Part shown: piece after piece, positions 6,418 through 33,361 of the stretch
How the letters are laid out: every line of letters begins with the position of its first letter
How positions within the stretch are numbered: position 1 is the first letter of the stretch
Source of the DNA: Candidatus Yanofskybacteria bacterium
GTDB lineage: Bacteria; Patescibacteriota; Minisyncoccia; 2-02-FULL-40-12; GWA2-44-9
Direction of reading: 5' to 3'
DNA length: 64,000 nucleotides
Assembly (NCBI GenBank): GCA_003151795.1
Contig: PLYL01000005.1
Coordinates: 1,011 to 65,010 of the forward strand
Position numbers and translations under genes: made by a program
The notes under the pieces: generated by a model
Told to the model about the DNA's origin: nothing
The model's input: the letters and a program-made list of their open reading frames with translations, nothing else
Database searches by the model: none

Positions 6418-6456
6418 ATGCTAATTATATACCATCCTTGGGAATAAGCCTAGCTG

Positions 6457-16871: not shown

Positions 16872-16882
16872 CGCATCCCGAG

Positions 16883-17590
16883 ATGATTGATTTAAGTCAC
16901 ATCCAAAAAAAATACGATGACGAAGCATCGGCGACGTTAGCCCTTGACGATGTTTCATTCAAAATCGATCCGGGCGAATTCGTGGCCATCATGGGCCCGT
17001 CCGGTTCCGGCAAGTCCACCTTGCTCCATATTTTGAGTTTCATGGATCGACCCACGGCCGGTGCGTACACCTTTTACGGCAAGGACATGAGCGACTTGAG
17101 CGATGCGGAACTCGCGTCTATCAGAAACAAGGATATGGGTTTTGTGTTCCAGTCGTTTAATCTTTTGGCCCGTCAGAGCGTCTATGACAATGTCGAAATT
17201 CCGCTCATGTATTCCGATATCAAAATTGCCGACCGCAAGAAACTCGTCGAAGACGCCGTCAAGGCGGTGGGCTTATCGGAAAAACTGCACGTCGAAGCGG
17301 GCAAGCTTTCCGGCGGCCAAAAACAGCGCGTCGCTATCGCCCGCGCCTTGGTTTGTAATCCGCGGGTGATTTTTGCCGACGAGCCGACGGGAAATTTGGA
17401 TTCCAAATCCGGCGGCCAAGTCATGAATATTCTCGAGGACCTGCACGCCAAAGGCCATACCATCGTCTTAGTTACCCACGAGACGTACACCGCCGGCTAC
17501 GCCAATCGTTTGATTAGAATTAAAGACGGCAACGTGGAATTTGACGGTCCGACCGAGAAGAGCCACGAACACGGTACGTTCGTTAAATAA
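16883..17590 (+). CDS. ABC transporter ATP-binding protein (MacB/LolD-type)
   Basis: Walker [10 protein letters not shown], signature [15 protein letters not shown], Walker [12 protein letters not shown]. Confidence 0.85.
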
Positions 17591-17595
17591 AATAT

Positions 17596-18843: not shown

Positions 18844-18941
18844 ATCCGGATAAACTTCTTGTCAGGACTTAGATATTTGTTTAAAATATGTAATATTGGG
18901 GCGGTGTTTTGCGTATACCTAACGCAGTAGAATTATTTAAC

Positions 18942-19475
18942 ATGAAAAAATTCCTCGTATCGGCAATCATTGTCGTAGCTTTTGTGGGCTATTTTTGGTT
19001 CCAGCAACAAAGCCCGCAGGTGGTAGAGATTATTCCAAGCGTCAGCGCGACGCCGACTATAACTCCGCTTCCAACTGCGAATCCGACCGCCCTCCCGACA
19101 ACCAGCGGCATGCCGGTATCGACCGCTTTACCGACTCCAGCGCCAACTCAAAGACCGACCGCGACGCCAACCCCTAAACTGGGCTTATATAAAGACGGCA
19201 CCTATACCAGCCAAGTCGCCGATGCCGGCTATGGCCCCGTCCAGATAAGAGTGACTGTTCAAGGCGGCCAGATGACCAATGTCCAATTCCTGCAATATCC
19301 AACCGATGCCGGGCATAGCCGACAAGTGAGCAGTTATTCGACCCCAATCTTAAGCCAGGAGGCGATTATTGCCCAGAACGCTAATGCTAATGTAGATACC
19401 GTCTCCGGCGCCACCCAAACTTCAGAAGCGTTTATTCAAGCACTCGGCGGACTACTGGCAAGTATTAAAGCGTAA
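18942..19475 (+). CDS. Exported FMN-binding (FMN_bind) domain protein with Pro/Thr-rich linker
   Basis: Signal/TM, PT-rich linker, FMN_bind domain with predicted flavinylation motif DTVSGATQTS. Confidence 0.65.
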   Translation: MKKFLVSAIIVVAFVGYFWFQQQSPQVVEIIPSVSATPTITPLPTANPTALPTTSGMPVSTALPTPAPTQRPTATPTPKLGLYKDGTYTSQVADAGYGPVQIRVTVQGGQMTNVQFLQYPTDAGHSRQVSSYSTPILSQEAIIAQNANANVDTVSGATQTSEAFIQALGGLLASIKA

Positions 19476-19477
19476 TC

Positions 19478-20218
19478 ATGAAGGAGACTCGTATCTTAAT
19501 GGGGATGCCGGTTACTATAGATATTGCCGATATTTCCGCGACGGGCGAGGCCTTGCAAAAGGTCTTTTCCTATTTTGAATACGTTGACCAAAAATTCAGC
19601 ACTTACAAAACCGCCAGCGAAATCAGCCGAATCAATCGCGGGGAACTGGCGCCAGTCGATTATAGCGACGACATGAAAGAAGTTTTTCGGTTGGCCGAAG
19701 AAACCAAACAGCTCACGCGCGAATATTTCAATATCAAAAAGCCCGACGGTTCGTACGACCCGTCAGGTTTGGTGAAAGGCTGGGCGATTTATAGAGCGGC
19801 CGAACTGATTAAAGGTCTGGGCTTTAAAGAATATTACGTCGATGCCGGTGGGGATATCGAAGCCCGAGGCAAGGTTTGGAAAATCGGCATTAAAAATCCG
19901 TTCCAGCAAAAAGAAATCGTCAAGGTATTGTATATTCAAGACCGAGGCGTCGCCACGTCGGGGACTTATATTCGCGGCGACCATATTTACGATCCGACCA
20001 ATAGTGGGACGAATATGGACGAAATCGCGAGCCTGACGATTATCGGGCCCAACGTCTATGAAGCCGACCGGTTCGCGACGGCGGCGTTTGCCATGGGGCA
20101 AGCGGGAATTTATTTTGTTGAAAATTTAGAAGGCTTTGAAGGCTATATGATTGACCAGCACGGCCAAGCCACGATGACCACCGGCTTCGAGGCGTTTACC
20201 AAAGAAGTGCTACAATAA
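19478..20218 (+). CDS. apbE: ApbE-family FAD:protein FMN transferase
   Basis: DPSGLVKGWA, TSGTYIRGDHIYDPTNSG and DRFATAAFAMG are ApbE motifs. Confidence 0.75.
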   Translation: MKETRILMGMPVTIDIADISATGEALQKVFSYFEYVDQKFSTYKTASEISRINRGELAPVDYSDDMKEVFRLAEETKQLTREYFNIKKPDGSYDPSGLVKGWAIYRAAELIKGLGFKEYYVDAGGDIEARGKVWKIGIKNPFQQKEIVKVLYIQDRGVATSGTYIRGDHIYDPTNSGTNMDEIASLTIIGPNVYEADRFATAAFAMGQAGIYFVENLEGFEGYMIDQHGQATMTTGFEAFTKEVLQ

Positions 20219-20222
20219 AATC

Positions 20223-21743
20223 ATGTTTCGATTCATCGACAATCTGCTCAACCGCATCACCATGTACCGCTTGGTGCTGTATTATTTAATTATTTTGTGG
20301 GCGGCGGCTTTTATTTTTTCAATTTTCGGAATTTTAGCATACGAGCCATTTGGCATGGCCATCACGGCGATTATTATTTTATGCGTGTGCTGGCTGGCCA
20401 ATGTCATTCTGGCCGGCGTCTTTGAGGCGCCGGTGAACGTCGAGTCGGTTTATATCACGGCGCTAATTTTAATGCTGATTTTGACGCCGATTAAAGCCGC
20501 CGACCCTTATGGCTACTGGGTCTTTCTCGTGATGGTTTCTTTAGGCGCAATCGCGTCTAAATTCATCTTGGCGATTGGCAAGAAGCACGTCTTCAATCCC
20601 GCCGCTTTCGGGGTGGCCCTAGTCGCTTTCGCCGGCGTCTATTCGGCCAGCTGGTGGCTGGGCACGGCAGTGATGTTGCCGTTTGTCCTGGTGGGCGGAC
20701 TCTTGATTGTGCGGAAGCTTCAGCGGTCGGATTTGGCGTTCAGTTTTATTCTTGCGGCTTTTATATCTATCGCCGTGTCCACGTGGTTGAGGGGATTTGA
20801 TCCGTTCAGCGCGGTTCAGCGCGCGTTTCTACACTCGCCGATATTCTTCTTTGCTTTCGTGATGATTACGGAACCGTTAACCACGCCGCCGACCCGCGCC
20901 CTGCGGATTATCTACGGCTGTTTTGTCGGCGCTTTGTTTTCGCCGGCGATTGGTCTGGCCGGCATTCAATCGACTCCCGAGCTGGCGTTGTTGGTCGGCA
21001 ATGTTTTCTCGTATCTGGCCAGCCCGAAAACCAAGATGATATTAAAGCTGAAAGAAGTGATTCCGACCGGGACCGACTTGTATGATTTTGTCTTTACGCC
21101 CGATAAGAAATTAAAATTTAAAGCCGGGCAATATTTGGAATGGACGCTTGGCCACGATAGCCCCGATTCTCGCGGCAACCGCCGGTATTTTACGATTGCG
21201 TCTGCGCCGTCAGAATCTGATATTCGGATGGGCGTTAAATTTTATCCCAACTCGAGCACCTTCAAGAAAAAATTGGCCGGCCTTAGTGCCGGCGATGTTA
21301 TTGTCGGTTCCCAGCTGGCCGGCGAGTTTACGCTTCCAAAAGATAAAAACAAAAAACTGGTTTTCATCGCCGGCGGAATCGGCGTCACGCCCTTTCGGAG
21401 CATGGTTAAAAATATGCTTGATACAAGGGAACAGCGCGATGTCGTCATGTTTTATTCGGCCCGCACGCCGACCGAGCTGGCCTATCGGGATATTTTTGAC
21501 CAAGCCGTTCGGGAAAAAAGATTAAAAATGGTCTATACTGTCAATGACGCGCCGGCGGGTTGGCGGGGCCTGACCGGCTATATTACCGCCGACATGATTA
21601 TGCGGGAAGCGCCGGACTGCGCTCGGAGATTTTTCTACATCTCCGGGCCGCGGTCGATGGTCGTGATGTTTGAAGATGCCTTGAAAAAGCTCGGCGTGCC
21701 GAAAAACCAGATTAAAACCGACTTCTTCCCCGGCTTCGTATAA
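20223..21743 (+). CDS. Polytopic membrane protein fused to an FNR-like FAD/NAD(P)-binding oxidoreductase domain
   Basis: About 270-aa multi-TM N-terminal half with few His (not heme-like). The C-terminal half has RRYFTIAS (RxYS-type FAD site) and FIAGGIGVTPF (NAD(P) site). Confidence 0.6.
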   Translation: MFRFIDNLLNRITMYRLVLYYLIILWAAAFIFSIFGILAYEPFGMAITAIIILCVCWLANVILAGVFEAPVNVESVYITALILMLILTPIKAADPYGYWVFLVMVSLGAIASKFILAIGKKHVFNPAAFGVALVAFAGVYSASWWLGTAVMLPFVLVGGLLIVRKLQRSDLAFSFILAAFISIAVSTWLRGFDPFSAVQRAFLHSPIFFFAFVMITEPLTTPPTRALRIIYGCFVGALFSPAIGLAGIQSTPELALLVGNVFSYLASPKTKMILKLKEVIPTGTDLYDFVFTPDKKLKFKAGQYLEWTLGHDSPDSRGNRRYFTIASAPSESDIRMGVKFYPNSSTFKKKLAGLSAGDVIVGSQLAGEFTLPKDKNKKLVFIAGGIGVTPFRSMVKNMLDTREQRDVVMFYSARTPTELAYRDIFDQAVREKRLKMVYTVNDAPAGWRGLTGYITADMIMREAPDCARRFFYISGPRSMVVMFEDALKKLGVPKNQIKTDFFPGFV

Positions 21744-21831
21744 CCGCGGCTGAAACGGCCAAAAACATGAAACAAACCGGGTTTTGGTTCGTACTGTACC
21801 CTAAGCCTATAATAGGCTAATATGGATTGTC

Positions 21832-23565
21832 ATGAATAAAATCAAGGCTTTTATCTCCGCCCACAAATTTATCAGCACCCTCATCGCCCTCGTTTTAGTT
21901 ATATTCGTCTATTATAAATACTTCAAAACTTCGGCGATTGTCACCCAATACGCCCTCGCCACGGTTCAACAAGGGACGATTGTGAGTTCTATTTCCGGCA
22001 CGGGCCAAGTTTCCGGTTCTAGCGAAGTGTCCGTCAATCCCAAAGTTTCAGGCACGCTCACCTATGTGGACAGCGCTCTGGAGGGCAAATCGGTCAAAGC
22101 GGGAACCGTCATCGCGACCATTGATTCAACCGATGCCCAAAAAACCTTGCGCGACGCCCAGCTTAATCTTGAAAAACTCCAAGCCACCCAAGTGACCAGC
22201 CAGCCGAAACTGCAAGATTCAATTAATAATGACCAGAACAATCTGGTCAAAAACTATCAAGATGTCTTTGCCGGCGTTTCCGGAGCATTTCTCGATCTTC
22301 CGGGCATCTTCAATGACGCCGACAATGTTTTGTACGCCAATACCTTGAACGGCTCCTGCAAGCCGGATCTTTGTGATTATCAGAATCTGGTTGATTTAAG
22401 CGCCGTAGACAATCTTAATCTGCTTATTACTCAAGCCCAAAGCGATTTTGCCGCCGCGTCCGTTTCTTATACGAAAAATTTTAACGATTACGGCGGAATC
22501 TTATATACCGCGCCTCAAGACCAACTCGATCAGATATTGGCCGAAACGATTGGCTCGACCCAACTTTTATCCCAAAGCATTAAAAGCGAACAAGCCGTCA
22601 TTAATACGGTTATCCAGAATATCCAAACTCAAAATCACGCGACCGTGCCGAGCGCGATTACGGCCCACCAAACCACCTTGGCGTCTGATCTTTCCAAAAT
22701 CAACAACGACCTTTCCTCGCTTCTTAACGTGCAAGGCGTGGTTTTAAGCGACCGCCAAACATTGGCGTCAGACCAGCGCAATCTTGTCTCTGCCCAGCAA
22801 ACCAATCCCCTCGATCTGATTACCCAGCAAAACGCGGTCGCCGATGCCCAGCAAAATCTTTCCTATTATACGGTTCGCGTGCCGATTGACGGCATCGTCG
22901 CCAATATCACGGCTCAACGGGGCGCGAATGCGTCCAGCGGCGGGGCTTTGGCGACGATGGTGTCGCCCCAGCAAATCGCGGACGTAACTCTCAATGAAGT
23001 TGATGTTTCTAAAGTTATGCTTGGCCAGCAGGTCACGCTCACTTTTGACGCTTTGCCCGATTTGACCATGACCGGCAAAGTCATTTCCATCGATACCATC
23101 GGCACGGTCAGCCAAGGCGTCGTTTCCTATGACGTAAAGATTGCTTTTGATATCGCGAACCAAGAGATTAAACCGAGTATGAGCGTCTCGGCGGCGATTA
23201 TCACCCAAGCCAATTCCGACGCCTTGGAAGTCCCGACGAGCGCGGTGAAAATTCAAGGCACGCAATCGTATGTTCAGACGGTGCAACTGCCGGCCACGCT
23301 TATCAGCGCGGGCACCGCGACCGTGGCTTCAACCGTGCTCACGGCCGCGCCTCAAAACCAGATCGTCACGACCGGCATTCAAAGCGATACCATGACCGAA
23401 ATCACCAGCGGTCTTAAAGTCGGCGATATTATCGTCGTCCGAACCATTACCGGCGCCGCTGCTACCACGACTTCCAGCGCCGCCGGCGGTCTGCGCATCC
23501 CTGGCCTCACCGGCGGCACCGGTGGCGGCGCGACCCGGGCGACCACCACCGCCCCAGGAAGATAA
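21832..23565 (+). CDS. HlyD/MacA-family periplasmic adaptor protein (paralog) with Gly/Thr/Ala-rich C-tail
   Basis: Same architecture as 15336..16871. The C-terminus is TTTSSAAGGLRIPGLTGGTGGGATRATTTAPGR. Confidence 0.65.
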   Translation: MNKIKAFISAHKFISTLIALVLVIFVYYKYFKTSAIVTQYALATVQQGTIVSSISGTGQVSGSSEVSVNPKVSGTLTYVDSALEGKSVKAGTVIATIDSTDAQKTLRDAQLNLEKLQATQVTSQPKLQDSINNDQNNLVKNYQDVFAGVSGAFLDLPGIFNDADNVLYANTLNGSCKPDLCDYQNLVDLSAVDNLNLLITQAQSDFAAASVSYTKNFNDYGGILYTAPQDQLDQILAETIGSTQLLSQSIKSEQAVINTVIQNIQTQNHATVPSAITAHQTTLASDLSKINNDLSSLLNVQGVVLSDRQTLASDQRNLVSAQQTNPLDLITQQNAVADAQQNLSYYTVRVPIDGIVANITAQRGANASSGGALATMVSPQQIADVTLNEVDVSKVMLGQQVTLTFDALPDLTMTGKVISIDTIGTVSQGVVSYDVKIAFDIANQEIKPSMSVSAAIITQANSDALEVPTSAVKIQGTQSYVQTVQLPATLISAGTATVASTVLTAAPQNQIVTTGIQSDTMTEITSGLKVGDIIVVRTITGAAATTTSSAAGGLRIPGLTGGTGGGATRATTTAPGR

Positions 23566-23568
23566 TCT

Positions 23569-24282
23569 ATGATTAAATGTACGGATATCGAAAAAATTTA
23601 CCACGATGGCGGCGATCCCACCGTGGCTCTGAAGAATATTTCTTTTACGATTGAGAAAGGCGAGTTCGTGGCCATTATCGGGCCGTCCGGTTCGGGCAAA
23701 TCAACCCTGATGCATATTCTGGGCGCGCTCGATTCTCCGACCAACGGCATTTATGAGCTCGATGGCAAAAACGTTTCAGCGCTGTCGGAAGAACAGCTGG
23801 CCGATATCAGAAAAAAGAAAATAGGATTTGTGTTTCAGTCGTTTAATCTGTTGCCTCGGGCGACAGTGCTGCGCAACGTCGCTCTGCCGCTGGTGTACGC
23901 CGACGTTCCGGAAGAAGAACGCCTGGCACGTGCCCGCCAAGCCTTGTTGAGCGCCGGCATGGATGAATCAAGGTTCGACCATCTTTCCAACCAATTATCG
24001 GGCGGCCAGATGCAAAGAGTCGCCATCGCCCGCGCCCTGGTGAATGACCCGGCCCTGATTTTGGCCGACGAGCCGACCGGAAATTTGGATTCCAGAACCG
24101 GCGAAATTGTGCTCGACACGTTTCAAAGGCTGAACCGGGAACTGGGGCGCACGATTATTTTGATTACGCACGAGCCGTACGTCGCCGAACACGCCGACCG
24201 CATTATCACGGTCAAAGACGGGATGATTACCAGCGACGTCAAAAATTTGCATAAACGAATCATCAATCACCATGACGCTTAA
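23569..24282 (+). CDS. ABC transporter ATP-binding protein (MacB-type, paralog)
   Basis: [34 protein letters not shown]. Confidence 0.85.
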
Positions 24283-25495
24283 AGATTTATTTCAAGAGAC
24301 TTTTTCCGCGATTACGGTCAATAAAGTCCGGTCCGGCTTGACCGTGCTCGGGATTGTCATCGGCATCGCCTCGGTCATCGGTTTGGTCTCCATCGGCCAA
24401 GGCGCCCAAAATAGCATCTCCGCCAGCATCCAATCAATCGGCTCGAATCTGATTATTGTCACGCCGGGCGCCGCGCGCGGGGCGGGCGTGCAGTTCAGCG
24501 CCGGCCGGGGCAGCGCCCAAACGCTGACCCAAGCCGATGCCGACGCGATTAAAGCTACCGTAACTGAAGTCGCGGGCATCGCGCCCGAAGTTTCCCGCCG
24601 CTACCAAGTCATCGCCGGCGGGCTGAATACGAACACGAGCGTCATCGGCACCGTGGCGGATTATACCAATGTCCATAATTTTCAAATGGATGAAGGGTCA
24701 TTCATCACTGACCAGCAGGTCCAAAGCGTCGCCAAAGTGGCCGTGCTCGGCCCGACGACGCGAGACGATTTATTCGGCGTCGGTTCGGAAGCGCTCGGCC
24801 AGAAAATTAAAATCAACAAAATAGAATTTACCGTCATCGGCACGACAATTGCCAAAGGCGGTTCCGGTTTCACGAATCCGGACGACGCAATTTATGTCCC
24901 AATCTCGACCGCCCAGCATTATCTGGCCGGCGGGAATTACGTGACGGGGATTGATTTGTCGGCGGTGAGCCAGCCGGCGATGGTTGACGTCCAAAATCAG
25001 GTTACTAGTTTATTGCTCCAGCGCCATAATATTTCCGATCCGACCCTGGCTGATTTCAGCGTCATGAACCAGAATGACATTACTTCGGCCGCGTCCAGCA
25101 TCACTAACACCTTTACCCTTCTTCTGGCCGCCATCGCCGGTATTTCGCTCGTCGTCGGCGGAATCGGCATCATGAACATGATGCTCACGAGCGTCACCGA
25201 ACGGACGCGTGAAATCGGCTTGCGCAAAGCCATCGGCGCGACGCCGAAAGATATTTCTCTCCAATTTTTAACCGAATCAGTGATGCTGACATTTTTCGGC
25301 GGGGCCATCGGCGTTGCCATCGGCTGGGGTATTTCCCTTCTCGCCGGCCATTTCTTGAGCCTGAATACTTCCGTAACATTATCTTCCGTCGCACTGGCTT
25401 TTGGCGTTTCGGCCGGTATCGGGATTGTTTTCGGTTATTACCCTTCGCGTCGTGCCGCCGGTCTTAATCCCATTGAGGCATTGCGTTACGAATAA
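24272..25495 (+). CDS. ABC transporter permease, FtsX/MacB family (paralog)
   Basis: ERTREIGLRKAIGA motif and 4-TM topology. The ATPase stop overlaps its start. Confidence 0.8.
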   Translation: MTLKDLFQETFSAITVNKVRSGLTVLGIVIGIASVIGLVSIGQGAQNSISASIQSIGSNLIIVTPGAARGAGVQFSAGRGSAQTLTQADADAIKATVTEVAGIAPEVSRRYQVIAGGLNTNTSVIGTVADYTNVHNFQMDEGSFITDQQVQSVAKVAVLGPTTRDDLFGVGSEALGQKIKINKIEFTVIGTTIAKGGSGFTNPDDAIYVPISTAQHYLAGGNYVTGIDLSAVSQPAMVDVQNQVTSLLLQRHNISDPTLADFSVMNQNDITSAASSITNTFTLLLAAIAGISLVVGGIGIMNMMLTSVTERTREIGLRKAIGATPKDISLQFLTESVMLTFFGGAIGVAIGWGISLLAGHFLSLNTSVTLSSVALAFGVSAGIGIVFGYYPSRRAAGLNPIEALRYE

Positions 25496-25632
25496 TCCCG
25501 CACATAACGAGCAGAAGTCTCTGTTGTGGGCGATGGTTAAAGTTTTATAAAATAATTTTTCGGGCACTAGGATATTGGTTCTGGCTATATATGTAGCGAG
25601 ACCAGAAGCCCACTGCTCGTTATGTGCGGGAT
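25496..25632. repeat. IR-element copy 2: perfect 20-bp inverted repeat (ATCCCGCACATAACGAGCAG / CTGCTCGTTATGTGCGGGAT), 97-bp spacer
   Basis: The left arm starts right after the permease stop codon. The right arm ends in the ATGAATAAA start of the next gene. Confidence 0.8.
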
Positions 25633-26041
25633 GAATAAAAACATAGCGATAGTATTGATGGTTGTATTCGCGGGAGCGGGATTTTATGGCGGGATGAAGT
25701 ATCAGCAAGGTCAAACTCCGGATCGCGGTACGGGCACGTTTGCCGGCCGCACGGGCGGGACAGGCCGTGGCGGCGTCGCTTTCAACGGCACCTTCGGGCA
25801 AGTCATCGCCAAGACCGCTACGACCATCACGGTTCAGTTGGCGGACGGCAGTTCGCGTATTGTCTTTATATCCGCGACGACTCCCGTAGCGAAGCAGGCG
25901 TCCGGCACCTTGAATGACGTCGCCGTCGGCACCAATATCGCCGTGACGGGCACGAGCAACAGCGATGGCAGTGTCACCGCGTCTCAAATTCAAATCCGTC
26001 CCGCCGGCACGCCCCGTCCCAGTCCCTCGCCGACGCCGTAA
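25631..26041 (+). CDS. Small secreted Gly/Thr-rich protein (136 aa)
   Basis: Start at MNKNIAIVLMVVFAGAGF (signal/TM), then G/T-rich beta-like sequence and a PSPSPTP tail. Confidence 0.5.
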   Translation: MNKNIAIVLMVVFAGAGFYGGMKYQQGQTPDRGTGTFAGRTGGTGRGGVAFNGTFGQVIAKTATTITVQLADGSSRIVFISATTPVAKQASGTLNDVAVGTNIAVTGTSNSDGSVTASQIQIRPAGTPRPSPSPTP

Positions 26042-26051
26042 TTTTAACCCG

Positions 26052-26105
26052 TTCAAGATCTCGCCCGCTTTGAGCGGTCGTAGACCTTGGGCGAGGAATC
26101 TTGAA
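26052..26105. promoter_or_regulatory. Operator-like nested inverted repeat (ttcaagatctcgccc ... gggcgaggaatcttgaa) abutting the promoter -35
   Basis: 15/17-bp imperfect IR with a 22-nt spacer containing a second small hairpin (ccgctttgagcgg). It ends 6 nt before TTGACT. Confidence 0.45.
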
Positions 26106-26110
26106 TCGGG

Positions 26111-26138
26111 TTGACTTTTTCTTGAGAAGGCCTAGAAT
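26111..26138 (+). promoter_or_regulatory. Sigma70-like promoter TTGACT-N16-TAGAAT
   Basis: -35 at 26111-26116 and -10 at 26133-26138. An AGGAGG SD and an ATG follow 30 nt downstream. Confidence 0.55.
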
Positions 26139-26169
26139 CTAACCCATTGTACTTTAGGAGGATTGAGTC

Positions 26170-26289
26170 ATGGATTGTCCGTATTGTAATGGTTCTGGAA
26201 AGAAAACCTTCTTTGTGTTCTTTGAACTGGACTGTGGTAGATGCAGTGGCACTGGCCAGAAGCTGGACATGACCCCCAGTCAAACGTGA
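26170..26289 (+). CDS. 39-aa zinc-ribbon mini-protein with two CxxCxGxG motifs (MDCPYCNGSGKKTFFVFFELDCGRCSGTGQKLDMTPSQT)
   Basis: Strong SD (aggagg, 8-nt spacing), ATG, and two DnaJ-like CxxCxGxG repeats. Below ORF-track cutoff. It may instead be part of an ncRNA. Confidence 0.35.
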   Translation: MDCPYCNGSGKKTFFVFFELDCGRCSGTGQKLDMTPSQT

Positions 26290-26439
26290 TCCCAATGATC
26301 ACGTGCCGAGCAAGAAAGAAACCCGCGCGGCCGAAAACATCGAGGTTCCGGCGAACCGGAAATCCAGGCTCATCCCGGGTGTCAAAACCGACTCCAAGCA
26401 CAACATGTAGCACTGGCGAGTTCTGTCCAGGGATGAAGT

Positions 26440-26474
26440 GGCGGCGCGTTCAACGCGCCGCCTTTACTTTTTCC
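26440..26474 (+). terminator. GC-clamp hairpin (ggcggcgcg-ttcaa-cgcgccgcc) followed by tttactttttcc
   Basis: Perfect 9-bp all-GC stem with a 5-nt loop and a T-rich tail, 50 nt upstream of the RT start. Confidence 0.6.
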
Positions 26475-26524
26475 TCCCGAGTTTTATGATGCCCCAGGCC
26501 TAAACTTCTTTAAATTACAACAGA

Positions 26525-27844
26525 ATGATTGATTTTGATAATTTTCAGCAAATAATAGATAGAAAATTTTGGAGATGTATTACGAGAGACACCCTATGTC
26601 CAGTTGGGGAGCAGTCTAAAGATAAATTGCTTCGCATCCTCTATGATTCAATTGTGGATAAGACTTATTATCCATCTCCACCCCGAGAGTACCTTGTGAG
26701 CCATAAATCACAGAAAGTAGCCAGAATAGTTCCAGTTTTTGAAATAAAAGATTATTGTCTGTATTATTTTTGTGTAAAGCGACTTGAAGATTTTTTGACT
26801 AAAGAGCGAACCCCTAATACTTTTGGTGGATGGAGATTGAGTAATAATTTTAGTGAATTAGAACGACAAGAATTAGAGCGAAGATATCCTTATGTCGATC
26901 CCGAGTATTTTTCAGAAGGCTCTTTTAATCCATTGGCCTGGGTTAAATTCTGGGGTGAATTTACGGCTTTATTATACTCAACCCTAGAGCGAGAACAGGA
27001 GGGGTTTATTGTTGAGTTTGATATATCTAATTTTTATGATTGCGTAAGACTGGATATTCTAGAGAATAATATTAGGTCAGTATCTCCTGCAGAGTTACAA
27101 TTTGAAGTTAGTTTGCTTATGCATTTTTTAAAATACTGGAATAGGAAATTTAATTCCTATCACCCACAATCTGCAGGGATACCTCAAGACGAATCCCAAG
27201 ATTGTTCTAGAATTTTGGCTAATTTTTATCTCCAGGCCTATGATAAAAAGATCAACAGGTTATGTTCTGGAATGGGAGCTAGATATTTCAGATATGCAGA
27301 TGATCAAGTTATATTTGCAGAGAATAAATTAGTAGCCGGTAGACTCTTGTTTGAGGCGTCAAAAGAGTTATCTAAAATTGGTTTGAACATTAATACCAGT
27401 AAAGTTAAAGAGTTTAGTTCAAAGAAAGACTACGCAAACTTTTGGTCGTTCGACATACATCAAAATTTAGGCAGGAAAGATATAAAAAATGCTTTTGCAA
27501 TCTGGAAGGATAGAAAAGATAAAATAGATGGGTTCCGCAATTACCCATCTATTATTAAAAGATTTATTAGTAACGACCTTTCTGTACTGGATTTAAATGA
27601 GTACAATATGATTATGACTGAAGCTCTGTCTCGTGAGATGTATTCAGTCTATGATTCTCGCCAGCTAAAAAAGATATATTTGAAATTACACGAGGATGAA
27701 AAGAGAAAATTTATTAACGAGCTAAATCAAACGGCAAAAGTTTTTCCTTTTAATAAATTTCATTTTATCCTTAAGAAATTTTTTAGTGAATTTGGCTTTG
27801 ATTGTTCTGATTTAGACTTAAAAATTAATGAATTAAGGCTTTAG
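26525..27844 (+). CDS. Reverse transcriptase (orphan, YADD catalytic motif; retron/DRT/UG-like, not intron-associated)
   Basis: RT motifs PSPPREY..IVPVFEIKD (1/2), FIVEFDISNFYDCV (A/3), GIPQDESQDCSRILANFYL (B'/4), RYFRYADDQVIFAEN (C/5), ELSKIGLNINTSKVKEF (D/E/6-7). About 33% GC island. No maturase X, endonuclease or other fused effector domain. Confidence 0.8.
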   Translation: MIDFDNFQQIIDRKFWRCITRDTLCPVGEQSKDKLLRILYDSIVDKTYYPSPPREYLVSHKSQKVARIVPVFEIKDYCLYYFCVKRLEDFLTKERTPNTFGGWRLSNNFSELERQELERRYPYVDPEYFSEGSFNPLAWVKFWGEFTALLYSTLEREQEGFIVEFDISNFYDCVRLDILENNIRSVSPAELQFEVSLLMHFLKYWNRKFNSYHPQSAGIPQDESQDCSRILANFYLQAYDKKINRLCSGMGARYFRYADDQVIFAENKLVAGRLLFEASKELSKIGLNINTSKVKEFSSKKDYANFWSFDIHQNLGRKDIKNAFAIWKDRKDKIDGFRNYPSIIKRFISNDLSVLDLNEYNMIMTEALSREMYSVYDSRQLKKIYLKLHEDEKRKFINELNQTAKVFPFNKFHFILKKFFSEFGFDCSDLDLKINELRL

Positions 27845-27853
27845 GTATCAAAT

Positions 27854-28468
27854 ATGTTGAAAAACACAATAACTATTTTAATTTTTACTACAATCGTGAT
27901 AGTGTTTTTTATTTATCGAAACGAAGCGAAAGCGCCTAGTGAGATGGTGACACCGAAGGTAAGCCAAGTAATCAATTCAGCAAATACTATTTTTGATAAA
28001 GCGCGGATAACCAAGAAACCGTTTGGGATTTATATCACGCCGAAGAATTCGCCGGTTCAGCCGGAGAAATTTACGGGCTATCATACGGGCGTGGATTTTG
28101 AGACGACCTCGGCGGAGGAAAATATCGATGTGTCGGTGCCGGCATTTTGCGACGGTAAATTATTGTTGAAAGAATATGTGTCCGGCTACGGTGGCGTGGC
28201 GGTGGAGTCTTGCGTGCTCAATAATCAACCTGTAACGATTATCTATGGCCACCTACGGCTTGCCAGCATTACGCCGGCAGTCGGGCAATTATTAAATAAA
28301 GGGGATTTGCTCGGCGTTCTTGGTAAAGGCTATTCCACCGAAACCGACGGTGAGCGCAAACATCTCCACTTTGGTATTCACATCGGTTCCGCCATCAATA
28401 TCCTCGGCTACGTTCAAACCCAATCCGCTCTCTCCGGCTGGCTGGACCCCGTGCAATTTTTGAAATAG
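27854..28468 (+). CDS. M23-family (LytM-type) metallopeptidase with N-terminal TM anchor
   Basis: GYHTGVDFE (HxxxD) and HLHFGIHIG (HxH) are M23 zinc-ligand motifs. It starts 10 nt after the RT stop. Confidence 0.7.
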   Translation: MLKNTITILIFTTIVIVFFIYRNEAKAPSEMVTPKVSQVINSANTIFDKARITKKPFGIYITPKNSPVQPEKFTGYHTGVDFETTSAEENIDVSVPAFCDGKLLLKEYVSGYGGVAVESCVLNNQPVTIIYGHLRLASITPAVGQLLNKGDLLGVLGKGYSTETDGERKHLHFGIHIGSAINILGYVQTQSALSGWLDPVQFLK

Positions 28469-28514
28469 TTGACAAAAGACATCTTTTAAAGTATGATTAG
28501 TTTCGAAGGAGGGA

Positions 28515-29639: not shown

Positions 29640-30605
29640 ATGAGCATGACATACGAAGAAGGAATTTTGGGAATTCCGAAACAATTTAAGTATCAGCCAG
29701 AGATTATCAACAAGGATAAAATCCGCCCGTTCCAGCGGATTATTGTTTTGGGGATGGGCGGGTCGCGCTTAGCCGCGGATATTTTGAATATGCTCCAGCC
29801 GGAACTGGATATCCATATCCATTCCGATTATGATTTGCCCGCTTTGAGTTCTGAAACATTAGCGGAGGCGCTAGTGATTGCCAATTCCTATTCGGGCAAT
29901 ACGGCTGAACCGATTTCGGGCGCTAAAATTGCCATTGAGCGGGGACTTAATCTTGTGATTATCGCGAGCGGCGGGGAATTGATTACGCTCGCGAGGGAAA
30001 AGCAGATTCCTCACGCGGTTCTGCCTCATAGCCCATATCCGCCCCGGATGATGCTCGGCCATGACCTCGTAGCCATGGCGGAAATTATTGGCTTTGATTC
30101 TGCCGAATTGCAATCATGCCAGCACATTGATGCCCAAGCCTTAAAATCTGAAGGCACGCAAGTCGCCCGGCAGATGGGTTCGGCGATTCCGCTTATCTAT
30201 ACCTCGGAGCGTTTAAATGAACTCGGTTATATTTGGAAAGTTATTTTAAATGAAACCGCGAAGATGCCGGCGTTTCATAATCGTTTTCCCGAAGCGGACC
30301 ATAACGAAATCGCCGGATTCCAAGGCGATTGGGCGGCCGGGTTTCATTCTATATTTATCCGGGACGAACTTAACGCGCGCCTTGGCGAGCGGATGGATTT
30401 AACCGCTAAACTATTTCAATCGCACGGCATGCTGGTGGCTTCAATACCTCTGGCCGGCGTTTCCTTGGCCGAAAAGATTATTTCCTCGATTATTGTCGCT
30501 CACTGGACGGCCCTGGAATTGGCCGTCACAAATAATGTCGAACCGCTCGCGGTGCCGGAAATAGAAGAGTTCAAGAAAGAGCTACACAATCTAGTAAAAC
30601 CTTAA
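29640..30605 (+). CDS. Bifunctional phosphoglucose/phosphomannose isomerase (archaeal-type SIS-domain PGI/PMI)
   Basis: IIVLGMGGSRLAADIL SIS motif, about 320-aa length, and the conserved C-terminal region. Confidence 0.7.
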   Translation: MSMTYEEGILGIPKQFKYQPEIINKDKIRPFQRIIVLGMGGSRLAADILNMLQPELDIHIHSDYDLPALSSETLAEALVIANSYSGNTAEPISGAKIAIERGLNLVIIASGGELITLAREKQIPHAVLPHSPYPPRMMLGHDLVAMAEIIGFDSAELQSCQHIDAQALKSEGTQVARQMGSAIPLIYTSERLNELGYIWKVILNETAKMPAFHNRFPEADHNEIAGFQGDWAAGFHSIFIRDELNARLGERMDLTAKLFQSHGMLVASIPLAGVSLAEKIISSIIVAHWTALELAVTNNVEPLAVPEIEEFKKELHNLVKP

Positions 30606-33361
30606 CCTCCACAATCGGAATCAGTTGTGCATGTTTGATCCGGATTATCGCTACAGACGCCATTACCGGCGTCATCTATATTTGTACAAGAAGGTAAACC
30701 TGAACCGTTGACCGAGCTATCACTTGCGCATTCAATATCAGTTGTGCAGGTCTTGGTTTGATCATTGCTACAAATCCCATTACCGGCATCATCTTTGTTT
30801 GTGCAGGTACCGGCAGCACCTGAAGTGTTAGATGAAGCGCATTGAGCTTCTCCTGTGCAGGGTGTCCCCGTGTCGGTGCAATAGCCGTCTTTACAAAGAG
30901 GGTCGATACCGCCGCAATCAACTTCACTCCCGCAGGGTTGCCCAGGATTTTGGGGAGAATTAGCGGAGCAAACGTAATTTACGCAGAAGTTTGTGGGAGT
31001 TTTAGGTGTACTGCCAGTTGCTGGCGCGGTGCCGGCCGTGGGATTGGTCGCCGGTATGCCGGGGAGTTTAACCACGCTGCCAACGAGGTCGGGGTTGATG
31101 GTATTGAGAATTATAAAAGCCGAGAAGAGGACCAAGGCGCCGTAGACGGCGTTTTTCATAATAGTTTTAGCTCGACTGACTCTGTCGGCACCGCCAGCGG
31201 CAGTGAACCATAAGAATCCGGCGTAGAAAAATCTGACAAAGATAACGAGGCCGATAATCGACAGCGACCAGACAAATATCGCCGAAATCAATTGGCCGAG
31301 ATCGGTGGGCAGGCCCTTGCTGGGGACGGGGAAATCCGTACTCTTTGGAATCGGACCATTATTAACTGGACCAGTGGAAGGCGTCCCAATACCCGAGACA
31401 AATTTGACATCTTGGGTATCGGGACTCGCGGCTGCGGCGTACGTGCCGGTTACCGGATTGACGGCCGCGGCCAGCCATAGGCCATTGGCGGTCCACGTCC
31501 CGGCAAAAACAGTTTGGCCATCGCCGCCGTTATCAGAACTATCAAAGGAAGTGAACTTATCGCTTGTTTTGTTGGAATTCACGACAAATAAACCAAAGCC
31601 ATTTGTATTTTGGACGAGAATTCCGGTTTGAACTCCATCCGCGAGGGAGATAGGATCTTGTCCGGGATCATCGGCGCAAGTAGTAAGAGTCTTTGAGTCG
31701 ATAGACCCGTCTGGATTAAGCCACGCCGCGACATATGAACTATCAGTTGAGTTATAAATAATACCGGCATTGTCTTGGGCTTGGCCAAGTTCTGTCGCGG
31801 TCCCGATTGTGCCATCCGCGGAAACCGGTTGGATTTTTAATTTATCTCCATCCAAATAGGTGGCGCAATATTCTTTGGTCTTTGTATTAATCGCCACGCT
31901 CGGGGCACTGCCCTTAAGACTGACGTCGGCGAGCTTAGTCGGGCCGGTGATTGTGCCGGAACCATCAATACCAACGACCATAATTCCAACACTATTGGCG
32001 GCTTTTTCGTAAACTAAAACAAAACGCTGATTGATGGCGTCAAATTGAATGTCGCTGGCGCTATAGAGATGAGCCCCGCCCGTGGCGATTTTGAAGGCTG
32101 TACCCGAAGCCGAACCGTCTTCTGATAATAACTGGCCCCATAGGACAGCGCTTGGATCTTGGCCAGATGTCCAGACGACCAGATATTTATTTAGACTTGG
32201 ACTATAAGAGACTTTCGGCGTGTGGGCACCACTGCCGCCGATGTTTAAAACCGACCCGCTGGGCTTATTCGCGTCGGTCATTAATTGGCCTTGAATTTTT
32301 CCGCCATTTTCGGCGACAACGAGCCATAATTTTTTAGCCGGATCAAAAACAAGACTGGGGTTTTTGCCAGATAGCGCGGTCACGCCGGCACTGGTTGGAC
32401 TAATCAGGCAAGGAGCATCTTGGGGATAGACATAAGCCCAGCCGGTGAATGAGGTTCCGTCATATGGGACAGGATTAACGCCAGGATAGTTATAAATATA
32501 AAGAGGGTTGCCAGGACTACTATGTTCAGATTCGCAGTAAGTAGAAACACCATCACCGCCATCGCCATAGTTACAAGCCTCGGCATTGTTTGTTTGGCAT
32601 AATTTTAAACATGTGGCTAAACTTAAACCAGATGGTGTCGTATCAAACGTAGGACTCGTTCCTCGTATCTGTCCACCGACGATTACATTTTCAGGGCAGA
32701 AATTTCCTCCGCCGCCACTGCCAGGACCGGGATTTGGCCCAGGTGCTGGGGTAGGATTTGGAGCACCGGCCGGGCAAGTGCTTGGATCAGTGGCGTCAAG
32801 AGGGCTCTGAAGCACTATAATATTTGACCGTTCTTTTAAATCGGTGTTGCCATTGCGTGCGTCGCCGGCCGTGACCATGAATCCAAGCTGTTCTCCCGCT
32901 TTAAATTGATAGCCCGTCATTGGCGCCCAGCGGTTGTCGTAGTACCAGTTGCAGGTGGCATCGGAGATTGGCGCACCGGTAATCGGATCTCTCCCGTACC
33001 AAGCTTCAATAATTCCAGATCCAACCCACTTGCCGTTTATATTTAAAAAAAGCCAGAGTGTGTACTGGAGACTAGACGGACTCCCGTCGGGGTTAGTTCC
33101 AATAAATCCAGGAAGGTCGGTCTGGTCGGGCCAGCGGTTGGGGCCATTTTTTCTATCAAAATCAACGCTGACCGGGCCGTTAAGCACAACACTGTTGATA
33201 GTGGCTGTCACGGGCCAACTGGCAACGTCTTGCGGAGAACTGCCGGTTATGGTGGCCTGGCTTAAATTAAAGGCGTCTCCAGTCGCGGCGACGATGTGTT
33301 TTTGAGGACTAAAAAAAGCTAGCAGGATGATGCTACAGACGATAAAAATGCGAGATTTCAT
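30602..33361 (-). CDS. Large secreted/cell-surface protein (919 aa): signal peptide, beta-rich central region, VirB2/TrbC-like two-TM pilin-like segment, C-terminal Cys-rich repeats
   Basis: Signal MKSRIFIVCSIILLAFF. Two TM helices flank AAGGADRVSRAKTIMKNA. C-terminal repeats NxDDAGNGxCSxxxxxTCTTDxxC (x2) and other Cys-rich blocks. Pro/Gly linker PNPTPAPGPNPGPGSGGGG. Confidence 0.6.
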   Translation of the reverse strand: MKSRIFIVCSIILLAFFSPQKHIVAATGDAFNLSQATITGSSPQDVASWPVTATINSVVLNGPVSVDFDRKNGPNRWPDQTDLPGFIGTNPDGSPSSLQYTLWLFLNINGKWVGSGIIEAWYGRDPITGAPISDATCNWYYDNRWAPMTGYQFKAGEQLGFMVTAGDARNGNTDLKERSNIIVLQSPLDATDPSTCPAGAPNPTPAPGPNPGPGSGGGGNFCPENVIVGGQIRGTSPTFDTTPSGLSLATCLKLCQTNNAEACNYGDGGDGVSTYCESEHSSPGNPLYIYNYPGVNPVPYDGTSFTGWAYVYPQDAPCLISPTSAGVTALSGKNPSLVFDPAKKLWLVVAENGGKIQGQLMTDANKPSGSVLNIGGSGAHTPKVSYSPSLNKYLVVWTSGQDPSAVLWGQLLSEDGSASGTAFKIATGGAHLYSASDIQFDAINQRFVLVYEKAANSVGIMVVGIDGSGTITGPTKLADVSLKGSAPSVAINTKTKEYCATYLDGDKLKIQPVSADGTIGTATELGQAQDNAGIIYNSTDSSYVAAWLNPDGSIDSKTLTTCADDPGQDPISLADGVQTGILVQNTNGFGLFVVNSNKTSDKFTSFDSSDNGGDGQTVFAGTWTANGLWLAAAVNPVTGTYAAAASPDTQDVKFVSGIGTPSTGPVNNGPIPKSTDFPVPSKGLPTDLGQLISAIFVWSLSIIGLVIFVRFFYAGFLWFTAAGGADRVSRAKTIMKNAVYGALVLFSAFIILNTINPDLVGSVVKLPGIPATNPTAGTAPATGSTPKTPTNFCVNYVCSANSPQNPGQPCGSEVDCGGIDPLCKDGYCTDTGTPCTGEAQCASSNTSGAAGTCTNKDDAGNGICSNDQTKTCTTDIECASDSSVNGSGLPSCTNIDDAGNGVCSDNPDQTCTTDSDCGG

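Follow-up and report, generated by a model that had tools for sequence, protein, structure and literature searches.

Organization of the Locus

In the 64-kb window (the whole stretch of DNA analysed here), a UG13b reverse transcriptase (RT) of 439 aa is encoded on the forward strand at 26525-27844, with palm and fingers regions carrying the YADD motif followed by an all-helical C-terminal domain (approximately residues 300-439). The motifs reported in the initial annotation, FDISNFYDCV, GIPQDESQDCSRILANFYL, RYADD and GLNINTSKV, were all confirmed in an ORF that is complete, with no frameshift or stop, RYADD occupying residues 256-260 and the YxDD palm catalytic motifs being intact. No Shine-Dalgarno (SD) sequence is visible before the RT. 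Nine nucleotides separate its stop codon from the ATG of an M23 metallopeptidase gene (27854-28468, forward strand; Pfam Peptidase_M23), a host core gene. In keeping with the earlier suggestion of co-transcription the two genes are almost certainly transcribed together, M23 now coming second in the transcript. Homologues of M23 with up to 81% identity retain the same synteny without an RT, while at the other UG13b loci an M23 neighbor was found in none of 80. Sequence comparison indicates that M23 belongs to the core genes of the lineage and is no dedicated partner or effector of the RT.

The GC content of the RT is 0.33, while the whole window stands at 0.48 and the flanks at 0.49-0.55. It had been proposed that the RT and the elements upstream of it share a single AT-rich island, and while the low GC content of the RT was upheld, the upstream elements lie outside the island, 26052-26475 having a host-like GC content of 0.51 with the drop beginning only past the hairpin described below. 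The island is the RT segment alone, about 26492-27853. This inserted low-GC segment (26492-27853, forward strand), in which the RT ORF is preceded by a leader of 33 nt and followed by a spacer of 9 nt, is missing in syntenic relatives. The empty sites in L083, L084 and L085 consist of the DUF5666-like gene, approximately 75 nt and then M23, without an RT, the spacer containing a terminator hairpin and the motif TTTACTTTT..GAGTTTTATGATG just 5′ of the M23 ATG. Such comparisons set the boundaries of the insertion, though not with single-nucleotide precision, since the distance from promoter to ATG differs between relatives, and no target-site duplications or repeats were seen at the borders of the insert. 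The AT-rich 5′ end of M23 was considered as part of the island and rejected, the relatives encoding the same Ile/Phe/Lys-rich signal or transmembrane segment in similarly AT-rich sequence.

Upstream of the RT an intrinsic terminator was identified at 26440-26473 (forward strand), comprising the hairpin GGCGGCGCG-TTCAA-CGCGCCGCC and a T-run (-28.8 kcal/mol, z -6.5). A GC hairpin with a T-tail had been noted here previously and is indeed present, though not at the 50 nt from the RT ATG then given, the distance from the end of the terminator stem being 62 nt. The terminator is the positional equivalent of that following the DUF5666-like gene in relatives, in which the hairpin lies at the same place directly 5′ of a conserved promoter motif, and it would end the transcript of the zinc-finger cassette described below. 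A promoter scan located the host M23 promoter motif TTTACTTTTTCCTCCCGAGTTTTATGATG at 26463-26491 (forward strand), with a -35 element TTTACT, a 16-nt spacer and a -10 element TATGAT; this TTTACT-N16-TATGAT sequence (26463-26490), absent from the initial annotation, overlaps the T-tail of the terminator. The motif occurs once in the window and, with four to six mismatches, is found 7-8 nt 5′ of the first ATG in L082-L085, L089 and L090. Because the M23 promoter motif follows it as in the RT-less relatives, the hairpin with its T-tail is a terminator of host type, and it overlaps the M23 promoter of the host, by which the RT now appears to be driven.

The Upstream Zinc-Finger Cassette

The nested inverted repeat described earlier was found at 26046-26112 (forward strand) as a strong stem-loop (-35.6 kcal/mol, z -5.5) directly beyond the stop codon that closes the DUF5666-like host gene, where it is probably a transcription stop or mRNA-stabilizing hairpin of that gene. 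It is missing at the homologous position of the relative L082, the alignment of the window with L082 showing a 70-nt gap. Neither the stem-loop arm at 26048-26066 nor the terminator has a second copy in the window and therefore neither is a REP/MITE-type repeat. The promoter-like site TTGACT-N16-TAGAAT was likewise located as described (26111-26138, forward strand; 10/12 consensus match), with TTGACTTTTT and the spacing of the promoter conserved in L082. It is followed, again in agreement with the initial annotation, by AGGAGG at 26156-26161 and a 39-codon ORF at 26170-26289 (forward strand) with two CxxCxGxG motifs. The two correspond to one DnaJ-type zinc center, and across the six reading frames of the 64-kb window no further motif of this kind occurs. 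The ORF matches Pfam DnaJ_CXXCXGXG weakly (E 2e-4), as does its 63-aa homologue in L082 (E 4e-5), both under the curated Pfam cut-off.

Relative to the L082 homologue the 39-codon ORF looks truncated. The stretch of about 150 nt that follows had been regarded as a featureless region without an ORF, which it is not, another frame encoding ...DPNDHVPSKKETRAAENIEVP..., the counterpart of which in L082 is the C-terminal tail of its 63-aa zinc-finger ORF. The out-of-frame remnant of this basic tail (..DPNDHVPSKKETRAAEN..) was mapped by comparison with L082 to 26276-26413 (forward strand), the frame being shifted because of a 7-nt indel relative to L082, and the alignment suggests that the zinc-finger gene is probably frameshifted in this genome. 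Folding of the upstream RNA, as had been recommended, gave a structure better than shuffled sequence for 26144-26480 (z -3.1), most of the signal being due to the terminator and stem-loop, while 26280-26420 folds only marginally better than shuffled (z -1.9).

L082 carries this cassette in the corresponding position but has no RT there, and the block of promoter, SD sequence, mini-ORF and "150 nt" is a separate cassette of normal GC content, unrelated to the RT. A scan of JGI metagenome contigs with a 79-aa frame-repaired query returned no relatives, and a two-sequence zinc-finger profile returned from the same contigs only motif-level matches in an unrelated 263-aa protein with multiple CxxCxGxG motifs, such that within these contigs and the syntenic relatives L082 carries the only true homologue of the zinc-finger ORF. 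Neither the mini-ORF nor M23 had a match in PADLOC.

Classification of the Reverse Transcriptase

Classification with RT-family profiles, as had been called for, gave PADLOC RT_UG13b as the best match (E 1.2e-124, 414.7 bits), with residues 2-429 aligned to profile positions 1-417 of 430, followed by UG21 (E 8e-36), UG19, UG9, Drt8/UG7, UG13a, UG23 and UG34. The RT is a UG13b member of the UG/Abi (DRT) superfamily. UG13b is listed as a group of UG/Abi RTs, and is predicted to be defensive, by Mestre et al. (2022, NAR; PMC9226505), with the PADLOC model RT_UG13b (PDLC03750). The view that the locus was no described system that could be named was mistaken, that of a stand-alone, UG-type and probably defence-related RT correct. 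RVT_1 is the sole credible Pfam domain in the ORF, in accordance with the earlier reading that no maturase or endonuclease domain is fused to it. A Pfam match to Glyco_transf_64 at residues 312-384 was rejected as spurious, lying inside the helical C-terminal domain and being absent from the precomputed Pfam listing of the homologues.

A homology search identified 873 homologues, the closest with 41-42% identity, and 198 stretches encoding a relative of the RT were found in 185,579 species genomes but only one full-length relative in IMG/VR. In an alignment of 40 sequences 25 invariant and 39 near-invariant columns were recorded, the query having been included in defining them, and the RT keeps all 25 invariant residues. 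Conserved tyrosines Y48 (39/40) and Y56 (38/40) are candidate priming residues, together with Ser and Tyr residues in the disordered 105-135 loop. No experimentally tested UG13b enzyme was found in the literature.

The AF2 model of the RT (pLDDT 89.5) has an all-helical C-terminus, and the RT is fused to an alpha-helical repeat domain of the alphaRep/HEAT type, a feature of Class 1 UG/Abi enzymes. The top Foldseek TM-scores were to DRT6 (0.60), DRT4 (0.58-0.59) and AbiA (0.57), while those to DRT2 and DRT9 were 0.42-0.43. In a PDB profile search residues 254-437, including the C-terminal domain, aligned to UG15/DRT4. From sequence and model alike, the helical C-terminal domain appears to link the RT to the Class 1 enzymes DRT4, DRT6 and AbiA. 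Among the profile neighbors, UG21, UG19, UG9, Drt8/UG7, UG23 and UG34 are treated as Class 1 in PMC9226505, and from these neighbors and the predicted fold we infer that the RT belongs to Class 1.

UG13b Loci and Their Surroundings

A survey of other UG13b loci was used to search for partners of the RT. An ORF with CxxCxGxG motifs within 1.2 kb of the RT was found at none of 80 loci, contrary to what would be expected if homologous RTs always carried the mini-ORF, and blastn and nhmmer searches of the flanks of these loci detected no similarity to 26042-26524 above chance. The upstream gap is 30 nt or less in 25 of 79 loci and nine loci are tight on both sides. Together with the RT-less cassette of L082, the absence from 80 loci and the tight upstream gaps largely refute the proposal that the 26144-26475 RNA or a zinc-ribbon peptide is the partner of the RT. 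Rfam covariance models, run in E-value mode over 25500-28500, gave chance-level matches only (best E about 0.6), with nothing corresponding to the retron or DRT ncRNA that had been suspected. A conserved structured ncRNA beside the RT, which is a Class 2 feature, was found neither at the UG13b loci nor in the window. The RT is unlinked to the elements upstream of it.

The RT has a lower GC content than its flanks in 74 of 78 UG13b loci. The only conserved flanking elements are attC-like sites, confined to a Bacteroidota subset in which the gene lies between attC-like palindromes inside arrays of such sites, and attC-like hairpins are found 3′ of the RT in L028 and L005. In the window there is neither an attC-like site nor an integrase, and the RT stop codon and M23 are only 9 nt apart. 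At 21 of 80 loci the RT has genes for type I restriction-modification (R-M; HsdM and/or HsdR) as same-strand neighbors no more than about 4 kb away, and in several it is placed directly between HsdM/HsdR genes with gaps of a few nucleotides. The neighbors of the RT in the window include no defence genes but transporters and housekeeping genes.

Alternative Explanations

The promoter, mini-ORF, 150-nt RNA and hairpin might form one module with the RT, in which either the RNA would serve as template or scaffold, in the manner of DRT2, DRT9, DRT10 or retrons, or the peptide as a partner or effector. These elements adjoin the RT and share its strand, Class 2 DRTs do have upstream ncRNAs, the region folds better than shuffled sequence and read-through of the terminator could join the two units. 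Against this, the fold signal comes mostly from the terminator and stem-loop with little left in 26280-26420, and the hairpin with its T-tail is a terminator of host type that extends into the M23 promoter of the host. Moreover none of the 80 UG13b loci contains the cassette, many of them lacking the upstream space for it, L082 has the cassette without the RT, the GC content of the cassette is host-like where that of the RT is not, and the RT groups with Class 1 enzymes that are ncRNA-independent. The comparative data largely refute the one-module reading, which we regard as very improbable. That the RT belongs to a group II intron, retron or diversity-generating retroelement (DGR) with overlooked RNA parts might be suggested by its generic core and by the best NCBIfam match, the group II RT/maturase TIGR04416, which at 70 bits is well under its cut-off of 300. 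Yet the PADLOC retron RT models (E 1e-12) and the NCBIfam group II model (E 2e-19) fall far short of UG13b (1e-124), Rfam contains no match to an intron, msr/msd or other family, and the non-coding DNA of the insert amounts to 33 nt on the 5′ side and 9 nt on the 3′ side. Between 25900 and 28100 no TR/VR-type repeat was detected, the longest direct repeats being 24 nt or less with about 70% identity, and no a1/a2-type repeat brackets a non-coding stretch beside the RT. The Rfam and repeat searches bear out the initial view that intron RNA and a TR/VR pair are lacking at the locus, and the probability of this explanation is close to nil.

UG13b RTs could also be templated by an RNA from outside the flanking intergenic regions, such as their own mRNA, an RNA embedded in a coding region or one of host or phage origin. 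The nearest HMM neighbors and the C-terminal domain are nevertheless those of Class 1, the characterized members of which are all described as untemplated or protein-templated, and UG13b loci share no non-coding element besides the attC-like sites of the Bacteroidota subset, so that a non-flanking template is considered unlikely. Slightly less probable still is that the RT is a non-functional passenger or decaying relic, its expression from the M23 promoter being perhaps no more than fortuitous. The gene stands alone, lacks an SD sequence, lies outside any defence island and adjoins a zinc-finger gene that seems frameshifted, which suggests a hotspot tolerant of decay, and its closest homologue (41-42% identity) is too distant to gauge selection. 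On the other side, neither a frameshift nor a stop interrupts the full-length ORF, the 25 invariant positions are kept (although the query was part of the alignment that defined these and the 39 near-invariant ones), the fold is confident (pLDDT 89.5) and M23 has been left intact in an operon-like arrangement. It had been argued that a lack of upstream conservation would mark the RT as a degenerate relic, a conclusion that does not follow for a full-length RT with its invariant residues and a confident fold.

Proposed Origin and Function

The explanation that we favor as a whole, and hold to be probable, is the insertion of a promoterless UG13b gene before M23 with a Class 1-type role in defence. 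The RT would have been gained horizontally as a single promoterless gene that landed between the promoter and start codon of M23 in a Patescibacteria (CPR) host, with the RT and M23 being transcribed from the host M23 promoter. The sequence upstream of 26463 would then comprise the stem-loop, the zinc-finger cassette with its own promoter and SD sequence, and the terminator of the cassette, none of it related to the RT. The anatomy of the locus and the family assignment are held with high confidence.

Homology with the Class 1 enzymes AbiK, Abi-P2, AbiA, DRT1, DRT4 and DRT6 makes it most likely that the RT works without an ncRNA. The RT may prime DNA synthesis on one of its own Tyr or Ser residues, the product presumably being untemplated single-stranded DNA that would halt phage-infected cells through abortive infection. 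There is precedent for such a mechanism (PMC9508834, PMC12783706, PMC13275509, PMC13174585), and by extrapolation from these systems we infer the biochemistry and defensive role of the RT, with an untemplated protein-primed mechanism standing at about even chances. A more speculative functional wiring in the CPR lineage, in which co-expression of the RT with the M23 hydrolase creates a lineage-specific RT/murein-hydrolase abortive-infection unit tuned by read-through of the zinc-finger terminator, is a long shot. If true, it would be a unit built on a minimal (~440 aa) Class 1 RT, with a DNA product possibly of a new kind.

Comparison With Known Systems

The RT shares with other members of UG13b the size class (about 437-470 aa), the RT motifs and the single-gene architecture, but has only ~41% identity to any other sequence found and is wedged behind a housekeeping promoter. 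The group recurs beside type I R-M genes, and this copy lies in a CPR genome outside any defence island. DRT4 (UG15) and DRT6 (UG12) likewise combine an RT with a C-terminal helical (alphaRep-like) domain in a stand-alone gene (PMC12783706). They are the best global structural matches (TM 0.58-0.60), with similarity at the sequence level through the C-terminal domain, although the RT has only 13-16% identity to them and is about 50-100 residues shorter. DRT4 and DRT6 carry out Tyr-primed, template-independent synthesis of single-stranded DNA in abortive infection triggered by phage proteins (PMC12783706), and by analogy the RT is expected to work in the same way. Compared to AbiK, Abi-P2 and AbiA (PMC9508834) it lacks a HEPN or other extra domain and occurs in different taxa, with lower TM-scores (0.41-0.47) to AbiK and Abi-P2. 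The resemblance to DRT2, DRT9, DRT10 and retrons lies in a single RT with a seemingly non-coding upstream stretch, but in the window this stretch is part of another cassette and of the host's own sequence and shows no conservation alongside the RT. The HMM and fold similarity is confined to the catalytic core. In being a promoterless single-ORF unit behind a resident promoter, the RT also resembles integron defence cassettes (bioRxiv 10.1101/2024.07.02.601719).

Implications

An RT-plus-ncRNA or RT-plus-peptide module is absent from the locus and a false lead is removed. Annotation of the RT itself is routine, "DRT, UG13b" being the label that profiles of the PADLOC or DefenseFinder type would assign to it. 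Members of UG13b occur widely in Patescibacteria and can apparently be gained as lone genes that depend on a borrowed housekeeping promoter, with the spacer between the DUF5666-like gene and M23 acting as a small insertion hotspot at which relatives carry other cassettes. At ~440 aa the RT is smaller than the characterized Class 1 enzymes to which it was matched (about 490-600 residues in solved structures) and, should it prove active, UG13b would be a handy model for protein-primed, untemplated DNA synthesis.

Identity and fold of the reverse transcriptase

The 439-aa ORF at 26525-27844 (+) carries all the reverse transcriptase (RT) motifs quoted in the initial annotation, RYADD among them, and has no credible Pfam domain other than RVT_1. 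Running the RT-family profiles proposed there as a check gave a match to RT_UG13b over the whole length of the protein (PADLOC defence profiles, E 1.2e-124, 415 bits), the second-best profile being 90 orders of magnitude weaker and the runners-up being UG21, UG19, UG9, Drt8/UG7, UG13a, UG23 and UG34. What had been presented as a system without a name contains a member of the catalogued group UG13b (PADLOC; PMC9226505), and the RT is intact, horizontally acquired and under a captured host promoter. The anatomy of the RT and its family assignment, taken jointly, are very probably correct. A weak Pfam match to Glyco_transf_64 in the helical C-terminal domain (residues 312-384, 25.9 bits against a gathering cut-off of 21.3), listed for no RT homologue in the precomputed Pfam column, is probably spurious and likely a compositional artefact of Lys/Ile/Asn-rich sequence.

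UG13b is a large, cellular family, with 873 homologues recovered (the nearest 41-42% identical) and 198 confirmed stretches among 185,579 species genomes, spanning Patescibacteria, Bacteroidota, Cyanobacteria, Proteobacteria and some archaea, while just one full-length viral relative was found among 2.9 million viral contigs. In the sections of Mestre et al. (2022; PMC9226505) that treat it, UG13b arose by splitting UG13 and is predicted to be defensive from individual loci, with no ncRNA described. The class lists of the same paper include UG20, UG21, UG23, UG9, UG19, UG7 and UG34 in Class 1, in which the RT is fused to a helical alphaRep domain, and do not name UG13 among the Class 2 groups (PMC9226505).

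A profile of 40 family members searched against the PDB matched UG15/DRT4 chains at positions 254-437, extending through the C-terminal domain, and the AlphaFold2 model of the RT (pLDDT 89.5, pTM 0.89) is all-helical from residue 300. The best global Foldseek TM-scores were obtained with DRT6 (0.60), DRT4/UG15 (0.58-0.59) and AbiA (0.57), whereas DRT2 and DRT9 (0.42-0.43) and group II and retron RTs (0.39-0.47) matched less well. The profile match, the predicted helical C-terminus and the TM-scores lend independent support to placing the RT in Class 1.

A single-gene insertion behind a host promoter

The M23 metallopeptidase gene downstream of the RT (27854-28468, +) is a conserved gene of Patescibacteria, its homologues reaching 81% identity. 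The closest M23 relatives keep the gene order YknX-like, ABC ATPase, MacB, a 135-142-aa DUF5666-like gene and M23, and in L083/L084 and L085, the last from the same sample as the window, the spacer between the DUF5666-like gene and M23 is ~75 nt long and consists of a terminator hairpin, then TTTACTTTTCACCCCC(G/A)AGTTTTATGATG, then the M23 ATG 7-8 nt on. This 29-mer lies directly upstream of the first ATG in all of L082, L083, L084, L085, L089 and L090, loci of host relatives, and occurs once in the window, at 26463-26491, immediately 3' of the GC hairpin and T-run (26440-26473), where a promoter scan also placed TTTACT-N16-TATGAT (26463-26490) overlapping the terminator T-tail. From this arrangement, the hairpin and T-tail are the positional equivalent of the host terminator, the following 29 nt are the host M23 promoter, and the segment 26492-27853 (33-nt leader, RT ORF and 9 nt) is an inserted single gene that separates this promoter from the start codon of M23. 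The AT-rich 5' end of M23 is native, since its relatives encode the same Ile/Phe-rich N-terminus. The co-transcription of M23 with the RT suggested earlier is retained as a shared transcript, predicted from insertion behind the M23 promoter, but as an accident of that insertion, M23 being no dedicated partner.

Composition agrees only in part with the AT-rich island originally outlined. The RT has a GC content of 0.33 against 0.48 for the window, with a sliding-profile trough of 0.30-0.36 from about 26500 to 28000, while the upstream feature block is host-normal at 0.51 (26000-26499, 0.54) and lies outside the island.

Among the relatives (L083:5965-6003; L085:5965-6003; L082:2804-2841; L089:4283-4321), the conserved promoter has its -10 hexamer (TATGAT or TATTAT) just 7-8 nt ahead of the first ATG, so their mRNAs would be leaderless or nearly so; in the window, the RT insertion leaves M23 as a downstream cistron, 9 nt beyond the stop codon of the RT. 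The DUF5666-like/M23 spacer is an insertion hotspot in this Patescibacteria lineage (window 26042-27853; L082:2201-3204; L088:3-353), empty in L083, L084 and L085, and filled in the window by a zinc-finger cassette and the RT, in L082 by a zinc-finger cassette together with two genes, one of 67 aa on the minus strand and one of 121 aa, and in L088 (M23 81% identical) by a called gene of 116 aa that is truncated at the end of the contig and runs 4 nt into M23. The L082 121-aa protein resembles phosphoribosyl-ATP diphosphatase/MazG-like pyrophosphatases only weakly (NCBIfam E 7e-4). Elsewhere in the window, an operon for a YknX-like periplasmic adaptor, an ABC ATPase and a MacB-type permease occurs twice in tandem at ~16500-25500 (L001:1-8971), with FMN_bind, ApbE and NQR2/RnfD-like genes between the copies. 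The gene at 30602-33361 (-) encodes a secreted protein of 919 aa, rich in Cys and Thr, with a C-terminal TM segment and a weak Pfam match to T4SS_pilin; its syntenic counterpart in L085 is shorter (493 aa).

The zinc-finger cassette

All the upstream elements first reported were found: the nested stem-loop (26046-26112, a strong fold of -35.6 kcal/mol, z -5.5), the promoter-like TTGACT-N16-TAGAAT (26111-26138, promoter scan), AGGAGG followed by a 39-codon ORF whose two CxxCxGxG motifs are unique in a six-frame scan of the whole window, and the GC hairpin with T-run. A homologous unit is present at the same place in L082 (M23 76% identical) without the RT, comprising a TTGACTTTTT promoter, GGAGG, a terminator and a 63-aa ORF that encodes a basic tail (..GPSDHVPRKKEATKAKP..) as well as two CxxCxGxG motifs; in place of the RT are the 67-aa gene on the other strand and the 121-aa gene, which sits on the M23 promoter. 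On alignment the mini-ORFs match, the stem-loop is represented by 70 nt extra in the window, and the stretch formerly read as a 150-nt untranslated RNA continues the L082 homology (GATCAyGTGCCGAGsAAGAArGAA), although a 7-nt indel has put it in a different frame. A 79-aa ORF is recovered when the C5 run at 26273 is shortened by one C, and the fold of the stretch barely beats shuffled sequence (z -1.9). Given the L082 homology, the indel and the one-C repair, it is best taken as the 3' portion, now out of frame, of a small accessory gene that is either truncated or mis-assembled.

The indel adjoins the C5 run, and the stop TGA of the window ORF falls within a perfect 8-bp hairpin, ACGTGATC-CCAAT-GATCACGT (26255-26305). 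The truncation may represent a real pseudogene, an assembly error or regulated truncation. Scans of JGI metagenome contigs found no homologues of the ORF beyond L082. The zinc-finger gene is, on this comparison, a hotspot neighbour and no component of the RT.

Genomic context of UG13b homologues

The RT was located in 80 genomic loci (L002-L081). In 74 of 78 it is poorer in GC than the DNA around it (mean difference 6.7 points), which fits a horizontally moving gene. When all ORFs of at least 60 aa within 4 kb of the RT were clustered, just two neighbours recurred, the type I restriction-modification proteins HsdM and HsdR (Pfam-confirmed on one example of each), and M23 was not among them; no cluster linked the window to other loci except an ABC-type ATPase common with one locus ~2 kb away. 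HsdM- and/or HsdR-like neighbours occur in 21/80 loci (both in 16), always on the RT strand and within ~4 kb (L003, L012, L014, L023, L026, L027, L030, L032, L033, L036, L038, L054, L057, L078 and others; RT at ~6001-7400), and in several the RT lies directly between the two genes, either a few nt away from them or slightly overlapping them. This placement resembles the embedding of other abortive-infection genes in hsd loci.

Whether homologous RTs carry the mini-ORF was among the checks first suggested: none of the 80 loci shows a small CxxCxGxG ORF within 1.2 kb of the RT. In 25/79 loci no more than 30 nt separate the RT from the gene upstream, nine loci are tight on both sides, and nothing in 26042-26524 is shared with the flanks of RT loci (blastn, nhmmer). 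Neither an adjacent ncRNA nor a zinc-finger peptide is thus characteristic of the family, and the RT is without a conserved RNA or protein partner.

In several Bacteroidota loci, the non-coding DNA on either side of the RT shows higher conservation than the RT gene (between L005 and L028, 127 nt of downstream DNA are 95% identical and the gene 61%) and folds into long imperfect hairpins with CAAC/GTTG ends. These RT genes are bracketed by attC-like imperfect palindromes of ~130 nt (..CACAACAATGGCTATAAG....CTCATAGCC..CGTTGG..) at L028:5250-12870, where one occurs every 0.6-2 kb, at L005:7310-7450, 8510-8640 and 11430-11470, and in the RT flanks of L009, L018, L039 and L042. The Bacteroidota RT looks like a cassette in a chromosomal integron array, which fits reports of integron cassettes as carriers of defence genes (bioRxiv 10.1101/2024.07.02.601719). 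Elsewhere the RT lies between direct repeats in L049 (241 nt, 95% identity; 305-545 of 600 nt upstream and 14-253 downstream) and L067 (132 nt, 98%; the first 132 nt of the 600-nt upstream flank and 166-297 downstream), and between an inverted repeat pair in L006 (92 nt, 73%); such repeats may be the ends of mobile elements or insertion sites that were duplicated.

Predicted mechanism and alternatives

By likeness to Class 1 enzymes, there is about an even chance that the RT is untemplated and protein-primed. It would prime DNA synthesis on its own side chain, as characterised Class 1 enzymes do, then polymerise DNA without a nucleic-acid template, the product mediating abortive infection once stabilised or exposed by a phage factor. 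There are precedents in AbiK and Abi-P2 (PMC9508834), DRT1 (PMC13275509) and DRT4, which primes on Tyr125, makes random ssDNA and is triggered by a phage ssDNA-binding protein that also activates DRT6 (PMC12783706). As far as the cited accounts set out a general rule, Class 1 DRTs are untemplated and Class 2 DRTs ncRNA-templated (PMC13174585, PMC12632851). Y48 and Y56, near-invariant within a TYYPSxPREY segment, or Ser/Tyr in the low-confidence loop 105-135, are speculative candidates for priming.

A templated mechanism using a non-adjacent RNA is unlikely. That the RT works with the RNA or peptide encoded at 26144-26475, as initially proposed, is highly improbable, since the arrangement fails the comparative tests in the 80 RT loci and in L082, where the cassette stands without the RT; as a unit that system does not exist. 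It is unlikely that the RT is a non-functional passenger, its sequence being intact and fully conserved, and a group II intron, retron or DGR RT is excluded by the profile scores and by the lack of Rfam matches, of repeats and of space.

The window RT adds a divergent new member to UG13b, a group that is catalogued but unstudied, and its residual value is as a clean case of one gene captured behind a housekeeping promoter in the genome of a CPR bacterium.
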